A stretch of DNA of 64,000 nucleotides, from assembly GCA_964106645.2 (NCBI GenBank), contig OZ067039.1, one strand, 5' to 3'. Below are positions 2,924 to 16,204 of this stretch, piece by piece. The notes beneath the pieces are model-generated. The model had not been told where the DNA came from, did not search any database, and was given only the letters and a program-made list of their open reading frames with translations. Positions within the stretch are counted from its first letter, which is position 1, and each line of letters begins with the position of its first letter. The position numbers were made by a program, and so were the translations under genes. Source of the stretch: Podarcis pityusensis. Lineage: Eukaryota.

Positions 2924-2997
2924 TATTTGCCAATTTGGATATAATAGCAAATTCTGACTTCTGCAAAGGAGGAAGTAGCTAGTTGGGAATATGATGT

Positions 2998-3759
2998 TGT
3001 CAGAGTTGCTTCCAGATCCTAGCTCACAGAGGATCACGCTAGCCAGCGATCATTAAATAAAAGTCTTTATTGAGTTACAGTTTCCATTCTCAAGCTGCTG
3101 CGTGCAACCCTACGTCTAATGGTTAGATCGGCGAAGCTCCATCTGAGTCTCCGCCCCTTGTACACCAACTTAATATCCTAGCCTTGCTCCACCTTTTCCG
3201 CCTGACTGTTCTTCTCTGGGTCCCTCTGCCCCCCGGGGTCTCTTCCTTCCGGGATTCCTCTGACGCTGACGCTGACCCCCCTGACTCTTCTCCCTCCTTT
3301 CGGCGGGCTTTAGGACCTGGCTCCCTTTCCGGGCTGCCTACTGCGCCACCTTCCTGTGCATTTGAACTTGGCGCGCGCGCCCAACCTTCCACTTTCCGTC
3401 TGACCGTTTCTTCGCTCCCCGATGGAGGTGTGGCCACTCCTGACTCGTGCCCTCCCCCCTGTTGTGAGCTGCCAGCGCTTGATCCCTGGCGCCCTTCCTC
3501 TTCCCTGCTCTCTGGCGGTGACGCTGGTCCCGATTTCCAACTGCTCCCCTCTGAGTCCCCTCTGGCTCTATCTTCCTGGGGTGTCCCCCTAGGCTCCCCC
3601 CTTGCCCTGGCCACTGGTGCTCCTTTCTGTGAATCTTCTGATTCACTGGAAAGACTCGGAGATCTCGGGTCGTCGTCATCACTCATCTTTTCTTCTGCCT
3701 CCTCCCCCTCGCTCTCTGTTTCCTCCCTTGCCCTTGCCTCTGCTCCTGAACCCCTGACA
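2998..3759 (-). repeat. 3' LTR (762 bp)
   Basis: Direct repeat of 8810-9565. Preceded on the - strand by the polypurine tract. AATAAA on the - strand at 3066-3071. Confidence 0.95.
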
Positions 3760-6700
3760 TCCATCCCCCCCTCGAAGCCCCCTCTTCCCCCCTCCCCTCC
3801 TTCCGGTGCGGGATCTGGGTGCTGCCGTGTCAGGGGGACGAATGTCGGATACAGTTCGCTTCCCGTGGCGGGCCGCCATCTGAAGTCTTCCGGTTCTTCC
3901 TCCCTGCTCTCGTTGACGACGGTCACCTCCGCTTCCATCTCTGTGCCGCCGTGCTCGAAACCCGGGTCGTCCCCGAAAACGTCCATGTCCGTCTCTCCCT
4001 CGTTGCCTTCTGGAGACGTTGCTCGTCCTGGACCCTCCAGCCACCTTCTGCGGAACTGCTCCTCTGGTCGATCATCCCACCAATACGAGGGTTCTGAAGC
4101 AGATCCCGAGGGTGACCCCTCCGGGGAACGGACGTCTCGTGTCGGTTCCTCGTCCGAGTCGAACCCCCGGAACGTGCTGGCTGAAAGCGTGGGCGTGAAA
4201 AGCCAGTCGTCGAAAAAGTCTGCTGGCATTGGCCTATGTGGGAAGAGGGCATGAAACTCTTCTTTGAGCAGAGGTTCGTCTAAAGCGTAGCCCGGCACCC
4301 AGCTGTTGGCACTGGCCGGGGTGCCCTCCTTGGCGAGAAGGTATTCTACCCCCTCTTCCCCCCATCTGGAGTCCAAAATCTCCGTGACTTCGTTGATGCG
4401 CTCCTCCTGTGCCACTCCCCCTTGCCCGGTTCTCTCTCGGAGCGGACCCGGTGCCGTTCCTGGTTCCTGAAACCTGTGAGGTGCCTTGTAGGGAGTGAGC
4501 ACCGATCTGTGGAACACCGGATGCATTCTGGAACCCTCCGGAAGAGCCAGCCTGAAAGCCACCGGGTTGACCTGTTCTTCGACTTGGTAGGGCCCCAGTT
4601 GTTTATGCCCTAGTTTCTTCTTCGCCAACGACCTGGCCGGCACTGCGTGGGCTGCTAACCAGACCCAGTCTCCCACATGGATCTCTTCGCCAACCCTTCT
4701 GTGTTTGTCCGCTTGTACCTTGTATGCGTGTTTAGCCAGCTCCAGGTGCCGCCGCAGCTGATCGTGGACTTCCTGCAACTCCGACGCGAATGCATCTGCT
4801 GTCTGCGGCTCCCCCTCCCCCATTCTTTCCAGTCCCGGGAAGGTTCTGGGGTGCCTCCCGTTGTTGGCGAAGAACGGCGTGACCCCCGTGGACACGTGCT
4901 TCGTGTTGTTGTAGGCGAACTCGGCGAGAGGCAGGTAATCCACCCACGTCGCAGGCTGTTGATTCGCATAACATCTCAGGTACTGCTGCATGATGGCATT
5001 GACCCGCTCCGCTTGCCCGTTGGTCTGCGGGTGTCTAGCCGACGCCAGGTTGATCTTGACGTTCAGGAAGCCCATCAGCCTCTGCCAGAAGTTCGAGATG
5101 AACTGTCGCCTTCGGTCGGACAGAATAGACCGCGGCAGACCGTGAACCTTGAACACGTGGTCTATGAACAGTTTGGCGGTTTGTTCCGCCGTGGCCACCT
5201 TCGCACACGGAATGAAATGTGCCATCTTGGAGAACAAGTCCACCACCACCAGCACAGCCGTCTTGCCCCTCGAGCTGGGCAGATCCGTGACAAAGTCCAG
5301 GGCCACTCTCTCCCATGGTTCGAACGGAGTTTGCAGCGGTTCCAGCAGTCCGGCCGGCGGTCTGTGCACTGGTTTGGCCCTCTGGCAGGTGTCACACCTC
5401 GCCACGTAGTCCGCGACTTCCCCTCTCATTCCAGGCCACCAGAAGTCTCTGGCTACTAATTCCACCGTCTTCTTCTTTCCAAAGTGCCCGGCAGTGGGCG
5501 CGTCGTGCAGCTGCTGCAGTACCTTGGCGCGAAGTTCGTCTCCCGGCACGTAGATGGCCCCTTTACGGATGAGCAAACCATCTCGCAGCTGGAACTCGTC
5601 GGTCGCTGCCGTGCCCCTGTGCACCTCTGCCATCTTTGCTTGCGCGAAGGAGTCATCCTGCAACGCTCGTCGCACCGCATCCAGGTCAACTGTTGCCGCC
5701 GCGCACGCCCACACTGTCGGTGCGAAGATGTGCATGGCGGCCGCTGGCGTTGCCTCCTCCAGATACTGTGGCTTACGGGAGAGAGCATCCGCCATGATGT
5801 TGGTGTCCCCCGGGACATACTCTATTCGGAAGTCGAAATTCGCAAAGAACTCAGCCCAACGTATCTGCCTCTGGTTCAGGAACTGTGCCGTGCGCCAGTG
5901 CTCTAGATTCTTGTGGTCCGTGCAGACCTGCACCGTGTGCTTGGCGCCGATCAGGAAGTGCCTCCACGCTTTGAACGCTGCATGAATGGCCAGCAACTCC
6001 CTGTCCCAGATGGTGTAGTTCTGTTCGGACTTGCTGAGCTTCCTTGAGTAAAACGCTCCCGGCCTCCAAACCCCCTGCGGGTCTTTCTGCAGCAGGACTG
6101 CTCCCACGGCTCTGTCCGAAGCGTCTGTCTCCACCCTCATCGGCCTGCTGGGGTTGACATGAAGCAGCTGCTCTTCCGACGCGAAGAGACGCTTGAGTGC
6201 CTGAAAGGACTGCTCCGCCTGCTCTGTCCAGATGAACTTCTTTTTCTTGGAGCTGAGCGTGTCCGTGATGGCCGCTGTCTGCATCGCAAAGCCTTTGATA
6301 AACTTGCGATAGAAGTTCGCGAAGCCGACAAACCGTTGGACCTCCTTCCGGTTGCGTGGGCTTTTCCAATCCAACACTGCTCGGACCTTGGCGCTGTCCA
6401 TGGCGAGCCCTTTATCAGACAACTTGTAGCCCAGGAAATCCACCTCCGTCACGTCGAATTGGCACTTCTCCAGCTTGGCGTAAAGCCTATGTTGCTGTAG
6501 CCTGCTCAGCACTTCCTTGACGTGTCTGTCATGCTCCTGCTGCGATTCCGAAAAGATCAGGATGTCATCCAAGAAACAGACGCACGTCTTGTAGAGGAGC
6601 CCCGCCAACACGTGATGCATGAAAGCTTGAAAAACGTGGGAGCCATTTTGCAATCCAAAAGGCATAACTCTATATTCGTAGGTGCCCAGGGGCGTGAACA

Positions 6701-7700
6701 TGGCTGTCTTCCACTCATCTCCTTCCCGCATGCGAATGAGGTTGTATGCCCCTCGCAGGTCCAACTTGGTGAACACTCTGCCCTTCCGTACCTTTGCGAG
6801 GAGGTCGTCGATTCGGGGCATGGGGAAGTCCGATGGCTTGGTCACACTGTTCAAGATGCGATAGTCCACTACAAGTCTTTTTTGGGGCGTGTCCCGCTTC
6901 TTAACAAAGAATACCGGACTGCCCCCCACTGCCTTGGACTCTCGGATGAAACCGCGCTCCAAATTATGATCTATGAACTCTTTGAGTTCCTGCAGTTCGT
7001 CCTCAGACATGGAATACAGCTTCCCTTTGGGCAGCGCCGCCCCCGGCAGCAGGTCAATTTTGCAGTCATATGGTCTGTGGGGGGGTAGCCTGTCTGCCTC
7101 CTTCTCGCAGAAAACCTCCAAAAATTCTGCGTACTTGTGGGGAACCGCTTGCAGCGTGCCTAGCTGCCGCTGTGACTCCTCTTCCTCTCCTTCCTGCCTG
7201 GGCACGATGCAGTGTTCAGCGCAAAAGGAAGAGCCGAAGGTCAGCTGCCTCTGGTACCAAGCCAGCGTCGGGCTGTGCTTGTCCAGCCAACTCATGCCCA
7301 ATACAATGGGCGTGTCCGATAGTTGAGTGACATTGAAGCTGATGATTTCCCTGTGATTCCCAAGTCGCATCACCATTGGTGGCGTCTGCTTCACCACTTG
7401 CCCCCCTAGCAGCTCCCTGCCATCCACCGTGACAACCTGCAGGGGCAGCGTGGCAGGCAGCAACTGTATAGCGTGCCGGTCGACAAAGTCCTGCCCTATA
7501 AAGTCCGCATTGCTTCCGGAGTCAATGGTGATTGGCACGTCCATGGTGATTCCATTGGGCAGCTGGAGCGACGCGGTGAGCCTCACTACTGGTTTGGGCG
7601 GGAGGGGGTCCATGGGCTGTAAAATCTCTGGGGACTGCTTCACTGACACGTCTGGCTGGGCCCCAGTGCCTCTTTCTCCAGCCAGACTCCGTCGTTTCCC
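3123..7700 (-). CDS. pol: Pol polyprotein (protease, RT, RNase H, integrase, GPY/F, degenerate chromodomain, long acidic C-terminal tail), expressed as a Gag-Pol -1 frameshift fusion
   Basis: Motifs: IDSGS (protease); LDLRGAY, MPFGL and FLDD (RT); TDAS (RNase H); H-H-C-C (LHDAPTAGH...CDTC) and D,D,E core (integrase); GPY...HPVFH; EILDSR...VEYL...NSW. The frame is open from the slip site at 7694-7700 to TAA at 3123-3125. Confidence 0.95.
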   Translation of the reverse strand, partial: GKRRSLAGERGTGAQPDVSVKQSPEILQPMDPLPPKPVVRLTASLQLPNGITMDVPITIDSGSNADFIGQDFVDRHAIQLLPATLPLQVVTVDGRELLGGQVVKQTPPMVMRLGNHREIISFNVTQLSDTPIVLGMSWLDKHSPTLAWYQRQLTFGSSFCAEHCIVPRQEGEEEESQRQLGTLQAVPHKYAEFLEVFCEKEADRLPPHRPYDCKIDLLPGAALPKGKLYSMSEDELQELKEFIDHNLERGFIRESKAVGGSPVFFVKKRDTPQKRLVVDYRILNSVTKPSDFPMPRIDDLLAKVRKGRVFTKLDLRGAYNLIRMREGDEWKTAMFTPLGTYEYRVMPFGLQNGSHVFQAFMHHVLAGLLYKTCVCFLDDILIFSESQQEHDRHVKEVLSRLQQHRLYAKLEKCQFDVTEVDFLGYKLSDKGLAMDSAKVRAVLDWKSPRNRKEVQRFVGFANFYRKFIKGFAMQTAAITDTLSSKKKKFIWTEQAEQSFQALKRLFASEEQLLHVNPSRPMRVETDASDRAVGAVLLQKDPQGVWRPGAFYSRKLSKSEQNYTIWDRELLAIHAAFKAWRHFLIGAKHTVQVCTDHKNLEHWRTAQFLNQRQIRWAEFFANFDFRIEYVPGDTNIMADALSRKPQYLEEATPAAAMHIFAPTVWACAAATVDLDAVRRALQDDSFAQAKMAEVHRGTAATDEFQLRDGLLIRKGAIYVPGDELRAKVLQQLHDAPTAGHFGKKKTVELVARDFWWPGMRGEVADYVARCDTCQRAKPVHRPPAGLLEPLQTPFEPWERVALDFVTDLPSSRGKTAVLVVVDLFSKMAHFIPCAKVATAEQTAKLFIDHVFKVHGLPRSILSDRRRQFISNFWQRLMGFLNVKINLASARHPQTNGQAERVNAIMQQYLRCYANQQPATWVDYLPLAEFAYNNTKHVSTGVTPFFANNGRHPRTFPGLERMGEGEPQTADAFASELQEVHDQLRRHLELAKHAYKVQADKHRRVGEEIHVGDWVWLAAHAVPARSLAKKKLGHKQLGPYQVEEQVNPVAFRLALPEGSRMHPVFHRSVLTPYKAPHRFQEPGTAPGPLRERTGQGGVAQEERINEVTEILDSRWGEEGVEYLLAKEGTPASANSWVPGYALDEPLLKEEFHALFPHRPMPADFFDDWLFTPTLSASTFRGFDSDEEPTRDVRSPEGSPSGSASEPSYWWDDRPEEQFRRRWLEGPGRATSPEGNEGETDMDVFGDDPGFEHGGTEMEAEVTVVNESREEEPEDFRWRPATGSELYPTFVPLTRQHPDPAPEGGEGGRGGFEGGMDVRGSGAEARAREETESEGEEAEEKMSDDDDPRSPSLSSESEDSQKGAPVARARGEPRGTPQEDRARGDSEGSSWKSGPASPPESREEEGRQGSSAGSSQQGGGHESGVATPPSGSEETVRRKVEGWARAPSSNAQEGGAVGSPEREPGPKARRKEGEESGGSASASEESRKEETPGGRGTQRRTVRRKRWSKARILSWCTRGGDSDGASPI
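3760..3773 (-). promoter_or_regulatory. Polypurine tract (GAGGGGGGGATGGA) abutting the 3' LTR
   Basis: Purine-rich run immediately 5' of the TGTCAG LTR start on the - strand. Confidence 0.8.
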
Positions 7701-8716
7701 TGCTGTGGTTGTCCTTGCTGCGTTGCTGCAGTTACCATTGCTGAGGCTGCAGTGTGCTTGTGGAGCCTCTGGGGACACTCTTTCGCCATATGCTGTGGAT
7801 CATCGCAGATGTAACACTTCCTGTTCCCTCTAGGAGGCTTCGCTTTCACTGCTGCCGGTGCTAGGGCTCTGGCTGCTGACTGAGCCCTTGCACCTCCAAC
7901 CTCCATAGGTTCCGCTCCTCCTCCTGGCGGAGGCGTGGATTGCGCACGCGCTGCTTCTCTGGGAAGGAAGGAGGAGCCCCTGGCTGGTTCGCGCCCTCCA
8001 CGCCCTTCGCCACTGCTCCACGGACGTTCTTCCAGCCGCACCCCCACCGCCAGCGCCCTCTGAACGATCTCCTGCGTGGTCCGGGGTCTCTCCCCCCTCG
8101 CAATTTCATCTTTAACCGAGCCGTGCAATCCCTCCCAAAACAGGTCTCTTACAGGAGCCGAATCTCTGTCCCATTCCAGAGCACTGACCAAAGCGAAAAA
8201 GCGGGCATGGTACTGCCTTACGCTGGCCCTCCCTTGCTTCAGTCCATGTATCTGCTGCCGAGCAAGATCCACGTCAATGCTTGATAAAAAGCACCCATCC
8301 ATCGCTTTAATAAAGGCATCCGCATTTTGGAGCGCCGGATCCTTATCTCTCCACAAATTGCGCAGCCATGCTTTAGCATCTCCATGCAAATGGGACATGA
8401 TGAATCCCACCTTCTCTTGCTCATCTCTAAAGTCTTTGTTCAGCAGTTGCAGTGCACACATTACATCTGCTCTAAAGTTGGGGTACTGTTGCAAATTCCC
8501 ATCGAAGTGAGAGACCAGACCGCCTGTTCGTCTCCCCAACCCAATCCCCTCCGGTTTGGGTGTCAGTTGCCCTTGCTTCGTAAGCACTTCCAACCTGACC
8601 TGGAGATCCCTGTAGGCGGCAGCTGCGTCCTCCTCTCTCTTCCTGGATGCAAGAGCCTCGGCATTCAGTCGCGACACTGCTTCTCTGAGTTCCGCTATCT
8701 GCTGTTCGGCCGTCAT
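7640..8716 (-). CDS. gag: Gag (358 aa from the first ATG) with CCHC zinc knuckle
   Basis: N-terminal coiled-coil-like stretch, capsid-like LKQG...VRQY...F...GL region, EPMEV motif, and CYICDDPQHMAKEC (CX2CX4HX4C). Confidence 0.93.
   Translation of the reverse strand: MTAEQQIAELREAVSRLNAEALASRKREEDAAAAYRDLQVRLEVLTKQGQLTPKPEGIGLGRRTGGLVSHFDGNLQQYPNFRADVMCALQLLNKDFRDEQEKVGFIMSHLHGDAKAWLRNLWRDKDPALQNADAFIKAMDGCFLSSIDVDLARQQIHGLKQGRASVRQYHARFFALVSALEWDRDSAPVRDLFWEGLHGSVKDEIARGERPRTTQEIVQRALAVGVRLEERPWSSGEGRGGREPARGSSFLPREAARAQSTPPPGGGAEPMEVGGARAQSAARALAPAAVKAKPPRGNRKCYICDDPQHMAKECPQRLHKHTAASAMVTAATQQGQPQQGNDGVWLEKEALGPSQTCQ
7641..7700 (-). promoter_or_regulatory. -1 ribosomal frameshift signal: G GGA AAC, 6-nt spacer, 10-bp stem / possible pseudoknot
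   Basis: The heptamer is in the correct gag phase (CAG GGA AAC). GTCTGGCTGG pairs perfectly with CCAGCCAGAC. The -1 frame is the pol ORF. Confidence 0.85.
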
Positions 8717-8809: not shown

Positions 8810-9565
8810 TGTCAGAGTTGCTTCCAGATCCTAGCTCACAGAGGATCACGCTAGCCAGCGATCATTAAATAAAAGTCTTTATTGAGTTACAGTTTCCATT
8901 CTCAAGCTGCTGCGTGCAACCCTACGTCTAATGGTTAGATCGGCGAAGCTCCATCTGAGTCTCCGCCCCTTGTACACCAACTTAATATCCTAGCCTTGCT
9001 CCACCTTTTCCGCCTGACTGTTCTTCTCTGGGTCCCTCTGCCCCCCGGGGTCTCTTCCTTCCGGGATTCCTCTGACGCTGACCCCCCTGACTCTTCTCCC
9101 TCCTTTCGGCGGGCTTTAGGACCTGGCTCCCTTTCCGGGCTGCCTACTGCGCCACCTTCCTGTGCATTTGAACTTGGCGCGCGCGCCCAACCTTCCACTT
9201 TCCGTCTGACCGTTTCTTCGCTCCCCGATGGAGGTGTGGCCACTCCTGACTCGTGCCCTCCCCCCTGTTGTGAGCTGCCAGCGCTTGATCCCTGGCGCCC
9301 TTCCTCTTCCCTGCTCTCTGGCGGTCACGCTGGTCCCGATTTCCAACTGCTCCCCTCTGAGTCCCCTCTGGCTCTATCTTCCTGGGGTGTCCCCCTAGGC
9401 TCCCCCCTTGCCCTGGCCACTGGTGCTCCTTTCTGTGAATCTTCTGATTCACTGGAAAGACTCGGAGATCTCGGGTCGTCGTCATCACTCATCTTTTCTT
9501 CTGCCTCCTCCCCCTCGCTTTCTGTTTCCTCCCTTGCCCTTGCCTCTGCTCCTGAACCCCTGACA
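8810..9565 (-). repeat. 5' LTR (756 bp)
   Basis: Direct repeat of 2998-3759. Differences seen: a 6-bp indel, G3520/C9326 and C3714/T9520. Confidence 0.95.
8982..8987 (-). promoter_or_regulatory. TATA-like box (TATTAA) of the 5' LTR promoter
   Basis: AT-rich hexamer in an otherwise GC-rich U3, about 32 nt upstream of the predicted self-priming 5' end. Confidence 0.6.
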
Positions 9566-10973
9566 GATGTGAACATAAACTCATTGCTGTAGCTCTGAAC
9601 CATGGTTTGCTGTTAGATATAACCCAGCCCAGAGTTTTCTTTGCAGCTGAATTTTTCAGAGAACTGAAAGAAATCTGTGTTGGACTGCATTTTAAAATGA
9701 GGGATGTAGCACCTTCCCTTAGTAAGACCCTACAGTCCTGGAAACATATATTGGTTACTCTTAACATTAAGAGCAAGGTAACTAAGAAGCATTGTGTGAA
9801 CAAACTATTTGGCTGACTGCTACAGGAAATGTAAATATAAATTAGACAGTAGAGCCAAATAATTTTTAACCGCATTTCTCTATTTCTAGATCCATATCTA
9901 TAACCTAGACGCAGTCCTTGGATAACAGTTTGACTTTCTTTGCAAAAAGAACTGTAGATTTGTGCAGTGAACTTTCTAGCGTGGCAAATGTAGTACTTGT
10001 TTGAATGTAATTCCAGTTTGTTTTGTTGGAACAAAATGTTTTGATTACTTTGTTTAGAAGGGCATTTTATTCCTGTGATCTAATTTAGCCTCCTGTGGAG
10101 ATTATGGGTAAACAATTTTTTTTTTTAAAAAAGTGTAACTTTGACTTAGGGCAAGCAGTTTGGGTAGGTAGCTAAAGTCAGTGTTTACTGGTCATGACCT
10201 GATTCATCATGAGTAAATATACCCCCCTCAATAAAAGACGAGTGTTTTTTATTTGCAATATTTCACACATGTGCTTTTTATGGTGAGTAATTTATTGAAA
10301 CTTGGAGCTGAAGTCTAATGCTGCCTCAAATTTTATAGCTCCTTGTACTTTGAAAAATCACTTTAATCTTAAAAGCTGTCCCCCCCTTCAATATGTGTTT
10401 GATCATTGTTACTAAAAAATCTTTGATTAAAACCTTATTTGTGAAGCATTTCTAACAACATTTTACATTATGCTGTTTGTGTTCAAGGCTGCTTTTTATT
10501 ATTAACGATGTAGAATCCGTAGCACCCTTTTCTTGAGGATGTATTAGAGAAATCATGAATGCTTCATAAATACATCAAACTTTTCCAACAGAACAGCCCA
10601 TCTAGTCTCTTGAACTTTTAAAAATGTCCAACTTAACCTTTTTAGGAAGGCGAGCAGAGGGAGGAATGAGAGGTAGTAGAGGACTTCTCTAGGGTCCTTA
10701 ACAGCTATCCTCTGTCTTGATTTTAATTTTATTGATTTTTTAGTCAGAGCTTTCCCTGGAAATGCTGTTTCCTTTATTCACTAGGAGAGATTCCCATTTC
10801 AGAGTCAGAATGCCTTCCTTTGGTATGAATTGGGCTGCCCAAAGGCACTGCTATTGATAATGAATAATATTTATAGTTTCATGCTTTCAACTACCCTGAT
10901 CAGTAGCAAGTTTCAGTGGCAATCTTTATAGGAACAGCAGCCTTGAACAAAGTGAATATTGAGGACTTACGTA

Positions 10974-14780: not shown

Positions 14781-15436
14781 ACTTATCTAAGTTACACATA
14801 AATTATTGAGGTTGCTAAACGGTTTCATCATCATCATCATCATCATTATTATCATCCTATACCTGGAGGTCTCAGGACGGTTCACAGAATAAAATATAAA
14901 ACCACAAAGTACATCATCAAAATAAAAACAACAACCCAATAACCCCCACTCCCCCCAAAAACCCACATTTTAAAAGGGCACAGGATCCTCCTCACAACAT
15001 TTAAAGTAAGACAATTAACAAACCTGGACAAGAGCCACCCATTGGAAAGACCATGATCTCAGAAATGTCTGCAGCAATATTTATTGGCAACCAAATTGGC
15101 TGGGTGCCTTTCTGATACAAAGACAAAAATAGCTTTGAAAAAGGGGAGGGGGGTAGCTTTGGTTGTTGAGTAGATGTAACATATTCCTCTTCCGCAAGGG
15201 GAAGGCCTGTATCTAATGTTGCAAATGAGTCCTCTTTGCTGTGTTTCATCTTCTTTCTTCTTGGCGCTGTTTCCACCGCTGATGAGCTTCCACCAGGTGG
15301 TTGTTTGTCCATGCCAGAAAGCCACCATGACTTTCTGGATCAGCCTCTTGGTCAGAGCCTGTGTATCTGCCAAGGTCTGGAAGGATGCTTGGGTCACAGC
15401 TTTCAGAAACGAAATAACAAGAAAGCACTTAAACTA

Positions 15437-16204
15437 ATATTCACATGTGGTGGGAATGCACAGCCATTAAGGAATTTTTCAATCTATAATGAATTAGAAA
15501 AGTTATTTAAGTTCTCATTTAAGAAAAAACCTGAAACCTTCCTCCTAGGCATAATGTCATCAGAAATAAAAAAAGATGTTAGACCACTTTTTATGTATAT
15601 GACAGTAGCAGCCAGGATCTTAATTGCAAGTAACTGGAAAAGTGATAAAACACCTACTATAAACGAGTGGCAGGTCCAAATGATAGAATATCTGCAGTTG
15701 GCTATGATGACAGGGAGAGTCATAGGATATCTAAAACAGAAAGTACAGAAAGAATGGAAAATCTTTAAAGAATACCTGGAAAACTATTTTAATAATAAAC
15801 ATCTCCTGGAAGAACTAGAATGATTCTTGTAAAATAAGAAACATAATGCTTTTGGTATCTGATAAAAATAAAGAAAGTAATACAGTAATTTGGAACTGTG
15901 TGTGAAAGAACAATAGAAATAATAATACAATGAGTCTAATCGGAAGTTAAATGTGTTTATTCTTTTTTTCAATTCTTTTCTTTATTAATTTCCTTTTTTT
16001 TTTCTTCTCCCCCTTTCTTTTGGTCTCCTTCTTTCTGATCTGCTAAGAAAGAGATAAAGTTAAACATGAAAAGTTGACTAACACAAAGTGATGTTTTGTA
16101 GTTTGTTAACTATTGTTAAAGATGGTCAACTGTAATGAATTGATGTTTTAGTTATTGTTGATTTATTGTTATTGTTGAATCTTAAATAAAAGTTATATTT
16201 AAAA
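15437..16204 (+). mobile_element. 5'-truncated L1-clade LINE (ORF2 C-terminus plus 3' UTR)
   Basis: HMWWEC remnant, then PETFLLGI...AARILIA.NWK...EW (L1 ORF2 tail), stop at 15823, AATAAA and A tail. 15-bp TSD aaagcacttaaacta at 15422-15436 and 16205-16219. Confidence 0.85.

Follow-up and report, generated by a model that had tools for sequence, protein, structure and literature searches.

A lizard Ty3/Gypsy retrotransposon with a pol frame that continues through the polypurine tract into the 3' LTR

The window analysed here, 64,000 nucleotides from Podarcis pityusensis (GenBank assembly GCA_964106645.2, contig OZ067039.1), contains on its minus strand a complete, young Ty3/Gypsy LTR retrotransposon. 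Its pol frame runs through the polypurine tract (PPT) and on into the 3' LTR, and this tail is, with high confidence, coding sequence. Promoter and conserved protein code are combined in 637 of the 762 bp of the LTR of an active vertebrate retrotransposon. The explanation that we consider probable is that the 212 LTR codons are under selection and that the integrase tail they complete serves nuclear entry and insertion-site choice, replacing a damaged chromodomain.

Architecture of the element and composition of its tail

The assignment to Ty3/Gypsy was based on the domain order (gag, then protease, RT, RNase H and integrase, without env) and on the TG...CA LTR pair, the PPT and the short target-site duplication (Table 1). 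Only two substitutions and one 6-nt indel distinguished the two LTRs, which marks the insertion as recent. A stop codon was present in the 5' LTR at the position equivalent to 3520 and absent from the 3' LTR. The family of the window element (family A) comprised 1462 DNA and 4447 protein candidates in a first-pass genome search, and the target-site duplication matched in 77 of the 80 copies fetched. Pol is a single open frame of 1558 aa (7799 to 3123, minus strand) that overlaps gag and lies in the -1 frame relative to it. The heptamer GGGAAAC, which we take to be a PEG10-type slippery site, sits in the overlap and was also found in elements L195, L178, L187 and L214. Together with the adjacent stem it is a likely -1 frameshift signal, which would yield a Gag-Pol of about 1864 aa. 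Elsewhere in the window, a 217-aa open frame at 15170-15823 (plus strand) was by eye a probable LINE fragment, and no open frame of at least 170 aa occurred between 16000 and 64000.

Table 1. Features of the element, in window coordinates.
Feature	Position	Strand	Description
Target-site duplication	2993..2997; second copy 9566-9570	not applicable	ACATC
3' LTR	2998..3759	-	762 bp, TG...CA; AATAAA at 3071-3066
LTR-coded tail	3123..3761	-	212 codons + stop; purifying selection
Basic cluster, then [IVL]LxW	3162..3215	-	overlaps TATA-like site
PPT	3760..3775	-	crossed in frame; includes ATG at 3764
Pre-LTR acidic tail part	3760..4229	-	156 codons; dN/dS about 0.3 versus families A2 and B
Aromatic segment, 8-residue linker, FxGF	4161..4229	-	resembles TND-interacting (LEDGF-binding) motifs
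Degenerate chromodomain	4230..4400	-	0/3 cage positions aromatic (by-eye comparison with family D)
pol frame	3123..7799	-	protease, RT, RNase H, integrase, SH3/GPY, chromodomain-like segment, tail
Candidate -1 frameshift signal	7650..7700	-	GGGAAAC heptamer, then 10-bp stem; fold -23.8 kcal/mol
gag	7640..8716	-	358 aa; Retrotrans_gag, Ty3_capsid, zinc knuckle
5' LTR	8810..9565	-	756 bp

Beyond the chromodomain-like segment, pol continued for 368 sense codons (4229-3126), 212 of them within the 3' LTR, close to the roughly 370 and 212 counted in the initial annotation. Its description of a frame running through the PPT into the LTR was confirmed, as were the residues EGGMD encoded by the PPT, the ATG at 3764 in the pol frame and the TATA-like box (ATATTAA, from 3176) within the codons for R-I-L-S. 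The U3/R boundary is a predicted position, and predictions likewise are the reading of the whole U3 and a stop about 20 nt beyond that boundary. The tail was rich in E, G, S, R and P, net negative over its first 200 residues and charged +8 in residues 321-360, which agrees with the acidic, S/G/E-rich tail with a basic end described at first. This composition suggests a disordered tail. No Pfam family was detected in the tail, and in its LTR-coded part the basic cluster was the one motif recognised. On the plus strand, the frame antisense to the tail was open for 375 aa (3127-4254), which is probably a mirror of the purine-rich sense strand.

The Pfam Chromo model matched the window element with 20.8 bits (E=3.6e-4), under the cut-off of 25.1, and family C with 43.5 bits. 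With the aromatic cage as defined in the accessible text of PMC3605345, three cage residues were lost in families A and B, two in family C and none in family D. A 34-row tree built on the integrase C-terminal region, without named reference elements, united A, A2, B, C, P0005 and P0023 in a clade with a support of 99/100 and placed D outside it. The A/B/C clade shared both FxGF and the basic cluster with LxW, short motifs kept across families at 50% integrase identity. Directly after the chromodomain, its members carried an aromatic segment, a linker of 8-9 residues and FxGF, with two such units in family C. F-x-G-F was invariant in all nine aligned A/B/C copies and was also found in P0001, P0003, P0005 and P0006. 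The linker of the window element consisted of 8 residues, S/T-rich without D or E, and that of family C was acidic. As the segment is located upstream of the LTR, it does not belong to the LTR-coded part. The Leu codon of [IVL]LxW was always TTA, suggesting an additional constraint at the DNA level; the TATA-like heptamer varied among the sister families, with the TTA codon alone kept.

LEDGF-family domains are encoded in the same genome. When the FxGF segment was modelled in complex with a Podarcis LEDGF domain, the score was 0.00 (two runs without alignments, by a tool unvalidated for peptides), which counts neither for nor against binding. The structure model of the chromodomain with the motif had a low confidence (mean pLDDT 48) and no helix at the motif, and the motif regions, searched by sequence against PDB chains, gave chance matches only (E at least 0.59). 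The tail of family D was unrelated to the A/B/C tail and ended in RRSARL. Within the last 25 pol codons of this family (L213-L228), RRSARL matched the HMGN nucleosome-binding consensus, as given in the accessible text of PMC12480509, at six residues, and the D stop was located directly ahead of a TATA-like site.

Conservation of the tail within and between families

From 150 listed copies of family A, 80 were fetched, chosen by the chromodomain region and not by the LTR. Truncated L091 was dropped, and the first 30 loci, chosen on the tail itself, were excluded from the frame counts. The open frame reached the same stop in 71 of the 79 full-length copies. The tail was broken in the other eight, in four within the 3' LTR only, in three before the LTR and in one by a frame-breaking deletion present in both LTRs. 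Substitutions shared by both LTRs of a copy, and thus inherited, comprised 19 replacement and 21 silent changes, versus 26 replacement (2 of them stops) and 12 silent changes among the single-LTR, post-insertion substitutions; in this young family the contrast was not significant (Fisher p=0.07). A 6-nt tandem unit at 3276-3271 of the window, an in-frame slippage hot spot, was repeatedly gained or lost (10 copies in the 5' LTR only, 10 in the 3' LTR only, 3 in both).

A search of 50%-cluster representatives returned tail homologues at 55-75% identity, through which families A2, B, C and D were found in the same genome. Among the 150 listed protein matches, most of the long 'tails' were judged on visual inspection to be gene models fused to host exons or to other repeats, and these were left out. 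In the unbroken frames of 40 fetched elements, 210 codons were read into the LTR in A2, 218-219 in B, 104-110 in C and 115-118 in D. The LTR was entered in the same codon phase by all 19 elements examined, and the stop codon alternated between TAA, TAG and TGA with its position held. The frame conservation that the initial annotation proposed to test was found among the copies of family A, with the LTR also read by the four sister families.

The dN/dS of the LTR-coded part was 0.20 for the window element versus L195, 0.27 and 0.30 versus family B, 0.14 within B, 0.33-0.34 within C and 0.49-0.83 within D, compared with 0.07-0.15 for the pol core and 0.55-3.4 for the other two sense frames of the LTR part. 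The dS of the LTR-coded part was near that of the pol core, and the families compared reached a saturating dS of about 1. In permutations preserving the substitution spectrum and CpG context (3000 each), the A/B pairs had fewer amino-acid changes than expected: 21 versus 34.3 (reached in 1/3000), 86 versus 117 (0/3000) and 8 versus 17 (0/3000). The result was weaker for C (69/3000 and 355/3000) and not significant for D (545/3000 and 419/3000). The dN/dS below 1 for which the initial annotation asked a test was found in the LTR-coded part for A/B (0.14-0.30, at most 1/3000), whereas for D selection was not significant. Indels in the LTR-coded part of close pairs were multiples of three (-6, -3, -21), and those after the stop mostly were not; the gaps of the window-versus-B alignment were ambiguous, with a sum of +21. 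In four other organisms, the common variants shown included a change from TAA to TAG at the stop codon and did not include indels.

Family D was young, with an LTR identity of 99-100%, and 6 of its 16 fetched copies lost the frame at the G-run of the PPT. In the more distant P0007 (Vipera latastei), P0022 and P0028, known from protein alone, the tails resembled read-through past a G-rich PPT, some being acidic and then basic. When proteins of similar or shorter length were searched for homologues of the family-C tail, three were obtained, all of similar length: the query itself and two entries from Podarcis muralis. By family, tail coding is real in A and B, probable in C and less certain in D.

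It is extremely improbable that the frame is open by chance, as a product of purine-rich LTR sequence in a family that is still young. The copies are about 99% identical, so that openness among them counts as one event, and the LTR part stayed open in 55 of 5000 composition-matched dinucleotide shuffles (the whole tail in 3 of 5000), but frame, phase and stop were held across families at a dS of about 1 with a frame-specific dN/dS of 0.14-0.34. For families A and B, a chance open frame was rejected on the basis of this cross-family conservation and the low frame-specific dN/dS. Another possibility is that the LTR frame is open chiefly so that pol ends close to the poly(A) site, for a short 3' UTR and RNA stability, in which case the amino acids would matter little. 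The stop precedes AATAAA (which starts at 3071) by 52 nt, its distance from the end of the LTR is 101-127 nt in A, B and C, and amino-acid conservation in D was weak. Amino acids in A and B were, however, conserved far beyond stop avoidance, and the frameshift layout suggests that most ribosomes would halt at the gag stop and leave a long untranslated tract, which makes such a function very unlikely, above all in A and B. The initial annotation had also considered a stand-alone 213-aa product from ATG 3764, that is, a separate nef- or sag-like accessory protein starting in the PPT and made from a subgenomic RNA. This ATG was in frame and kept in A, A2 and B, but C lacked it, and in D it fell out of frame although the PPT DNA motif was kept. 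Internal Met positions varied between families, the 156 pre-LTR codons were in frame and as conserved as the LTR-coded part, and no GT-AG splice joint was found in four RNA runs at low depth. A nef/sag-type gene has its own conserved start and a spliced RNA, whereas here the frame was continuous with pol and the start was not conserved; we did not retain the separate product and hold it to be highly unlikely. Raw RNA reads gave thin coverage, mostly at 90-99% identity, and often entered varied flanks, so that element-driven transcription and its ends are not established.

Distribution of copies and proposed role of the tail

Within 1.5 Mb of a chromosome end, where 3.5% was expected, 11 of 32 listed copies of family A, 30 of 66 of B, 10 of 45 of C and 3 of 75 of D were located, once rows assigned to C19 or to contigs of unknown length had been dropped (A 8/40, B 35/101, C 45/90, D 30/105). 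Families A, B and C were thus 6-13-fold enriched near ends, whereas D, with an intact cage and another tail, was not; over half of the listed A/B/C copies were on chromosome arms. The copies at ends were placed in a satellite of approximately 500 bp or nested in related elements. Among 20 end-cluster loci, 12 had a clean, distinct target-site duplication by a simple rule, and the others were nested or ambiguous. C2:1-1,800,000 contained 52 of the 89 listed C2 copies and C1:138.7-139.7 Mb 13 of the 44 listed C1 copies, and the satellite at these ends had a two-monomer higher-order unit. The contrast sets one clade against one family, and the enrichment is a correlation, since the copy lists are best-scoring subsets and not random samples, and since tail type, chromodomain state and lineage covary. 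Additionally, listed copies were in strong excess on C19 (38 Mb), with 24/101 for B, 32/90 for C and 12/105 for D against 2.5% expected; C19 is possibly a non-recombining sex chromosome.

We favour a nuclear or targeting role of the tail as probable. With the 3' U3 and R as parts of the genomic RNA, the whole frame would be translatable. A -1 frameshift would make Gag-Pol, and the tail would remain attached to integrase as a disordered arm. Its basic end may serve as a signal for nuclear import or chromatin binding, and the FxGF segment could dock onto a host chromatin factor. The same DNA retains its duties as PPT, attachment site and promoter, and is therefore a dual-use sequence. Of the disordered nuclear-targeting or regulatory module first proposed, selection on the LTR coding stands, composition and copy distribution fit, and the function is what we infer. 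LEDGF-type binding by the FxGF segment, judged from its sequence, is doubtful. Rather improbable is the fuller reading that the clade swapped histone-mark recognition by the chromodomain for a partly LTR-coded disordered tail, in which FxGF, mimicking cellular motifs of this type, would dock LEDGF/HRP2-type factors and the basic LxW end would drive insertion into the chromosome-end satellite. LEDGF tethering predicts insertion in gene bodies, and the satellite clusters are therefore not explained by LEDGF alone.

The tail might instead be translated and selected for another job, as an acidic nucleic-acid chaperone, a solubility or particle-assembly arm or a protease-released domain, with the end clusters resulting from the altered chromodomain or from weak purging. 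The strongly net negative charge of the first 200 residues would suit such a function, chromodomain state covaried with tail type, which makes their effects inseparable here, and the enrichment of B, C and D alike on C19 suggests that retention also shapes the distribution. Retention alone does not, however, predict that the equally young family D lacks enrichment at ends, and FxGF and LxW were kept across families despite an integrase identity of 50%. We regard another job of the tail as possible but unlikely, and targeting as the better explanation. Within one genome, young families that differ both in tail and in insertion pattern offer a natural comparison.

Comparison with known systems

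HIV nef and MMTV sag are separate genes that overlap U3 and are expressed from spliced RNAs. The window element likewise has protein code inside its 3' LTR, but as a continuation of pol. In the initial annotation, chromovirus pol was held to end at or near the chromodomain before the PPT, and no described case of an LTR-coded extension was known to it. Such an end is not a rule, and cases have been described: according to the accessible text of PMC3059260 and PMC3605345, pol extends into the 3' LTR in plant CRM group A and in several beet Bingo elements, and the targeting CR motif of CRM group A chromoviruses is encoded in the 3' LTR. Pol of the window element extends into the 3' LTR as in CRM group A. 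CRM group A is a plant clade, however, in which the CR motif replaces the chromodomain and lies downstream of the PPT, whereas in the window a degenerate chromodomain remains 470 nt upstream of the LTR, followed by 156 codons before the LTR and 212 inside. CRM group A is centromeric; the A/B/C clade is enriched at chromosome ends in the satellite, which may be centromeric or subtelomeric. The window element thus resembles CRM group A by layout (CR motif sequence not compared) and is not a member of it.

For Tal1 and EVD (ALE4 Copia), the accessible text of PMC11735389 reports, from experiments, that the choice between integration in centromeres and in arms is made by the variable integrase C-terminus. 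The present element resembles them in its variable integrase C-terminal region, which here probably bears on the insertion site; Tal1 and EVD belong to the Copia superfamily of plants, and LTR overlap is not among the features described in that text. The same text describes the site choice of centromere- or end-seeking transposons as incompletely understood in any organism.

TND-interacting motifs (TIMs) are laid out, in the accessible text of PMC9987994, as an obligate amphipathic helix, an acidic linker of 8-16 residues that is often S/T-rich or phosphorylated, and an optional FxGF, which matters for LEDGF/HRP2 binding. As in the TIMs of MLL1, JPO2, IWS1 and JIL-1 (accessible parts of PMC9987994 and 10.1101/624023), a hydrophobic segment, an 8-residue linker and FxGF stand in a putatively disordered acidic context here. 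The linker of the window element differs in being S/T-rich and non-acidic, and family C has two units with acidic linkers. Lentiviral integrases bind LEDGF via the catalytic core and not via an FxGF-type motif (accessible text of PMC5053271), and LEDGF steers integration to active genes. Binding of FxGF to LEDGF-type domains, if it occurs, would mean that a retrotransposon arrived by peptide mimicry at the host factor used by lentiviruses. Were the fuller reading true, with FxGF docking and satellite insertion by the basic LxW end, a vertebrate element would have converged with plant CRM elements in layout and with lentiviruses in host factor.

In the full-text literature searched, as far as its accessible text extends, neither a vertebrate case of LTR overlap nor an FxGF motif in a retrotransposon integrase was found; subscription journals, Repbase Reports and supplements fall outside that coverage and may describe such an overlap. 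The extension of pol into the LTR is already known from plants, and what is new is the damaged cage, FxGF, the basic end with LxW and the enrichment at chromosome ends in the families with the A/B/C type of tail.
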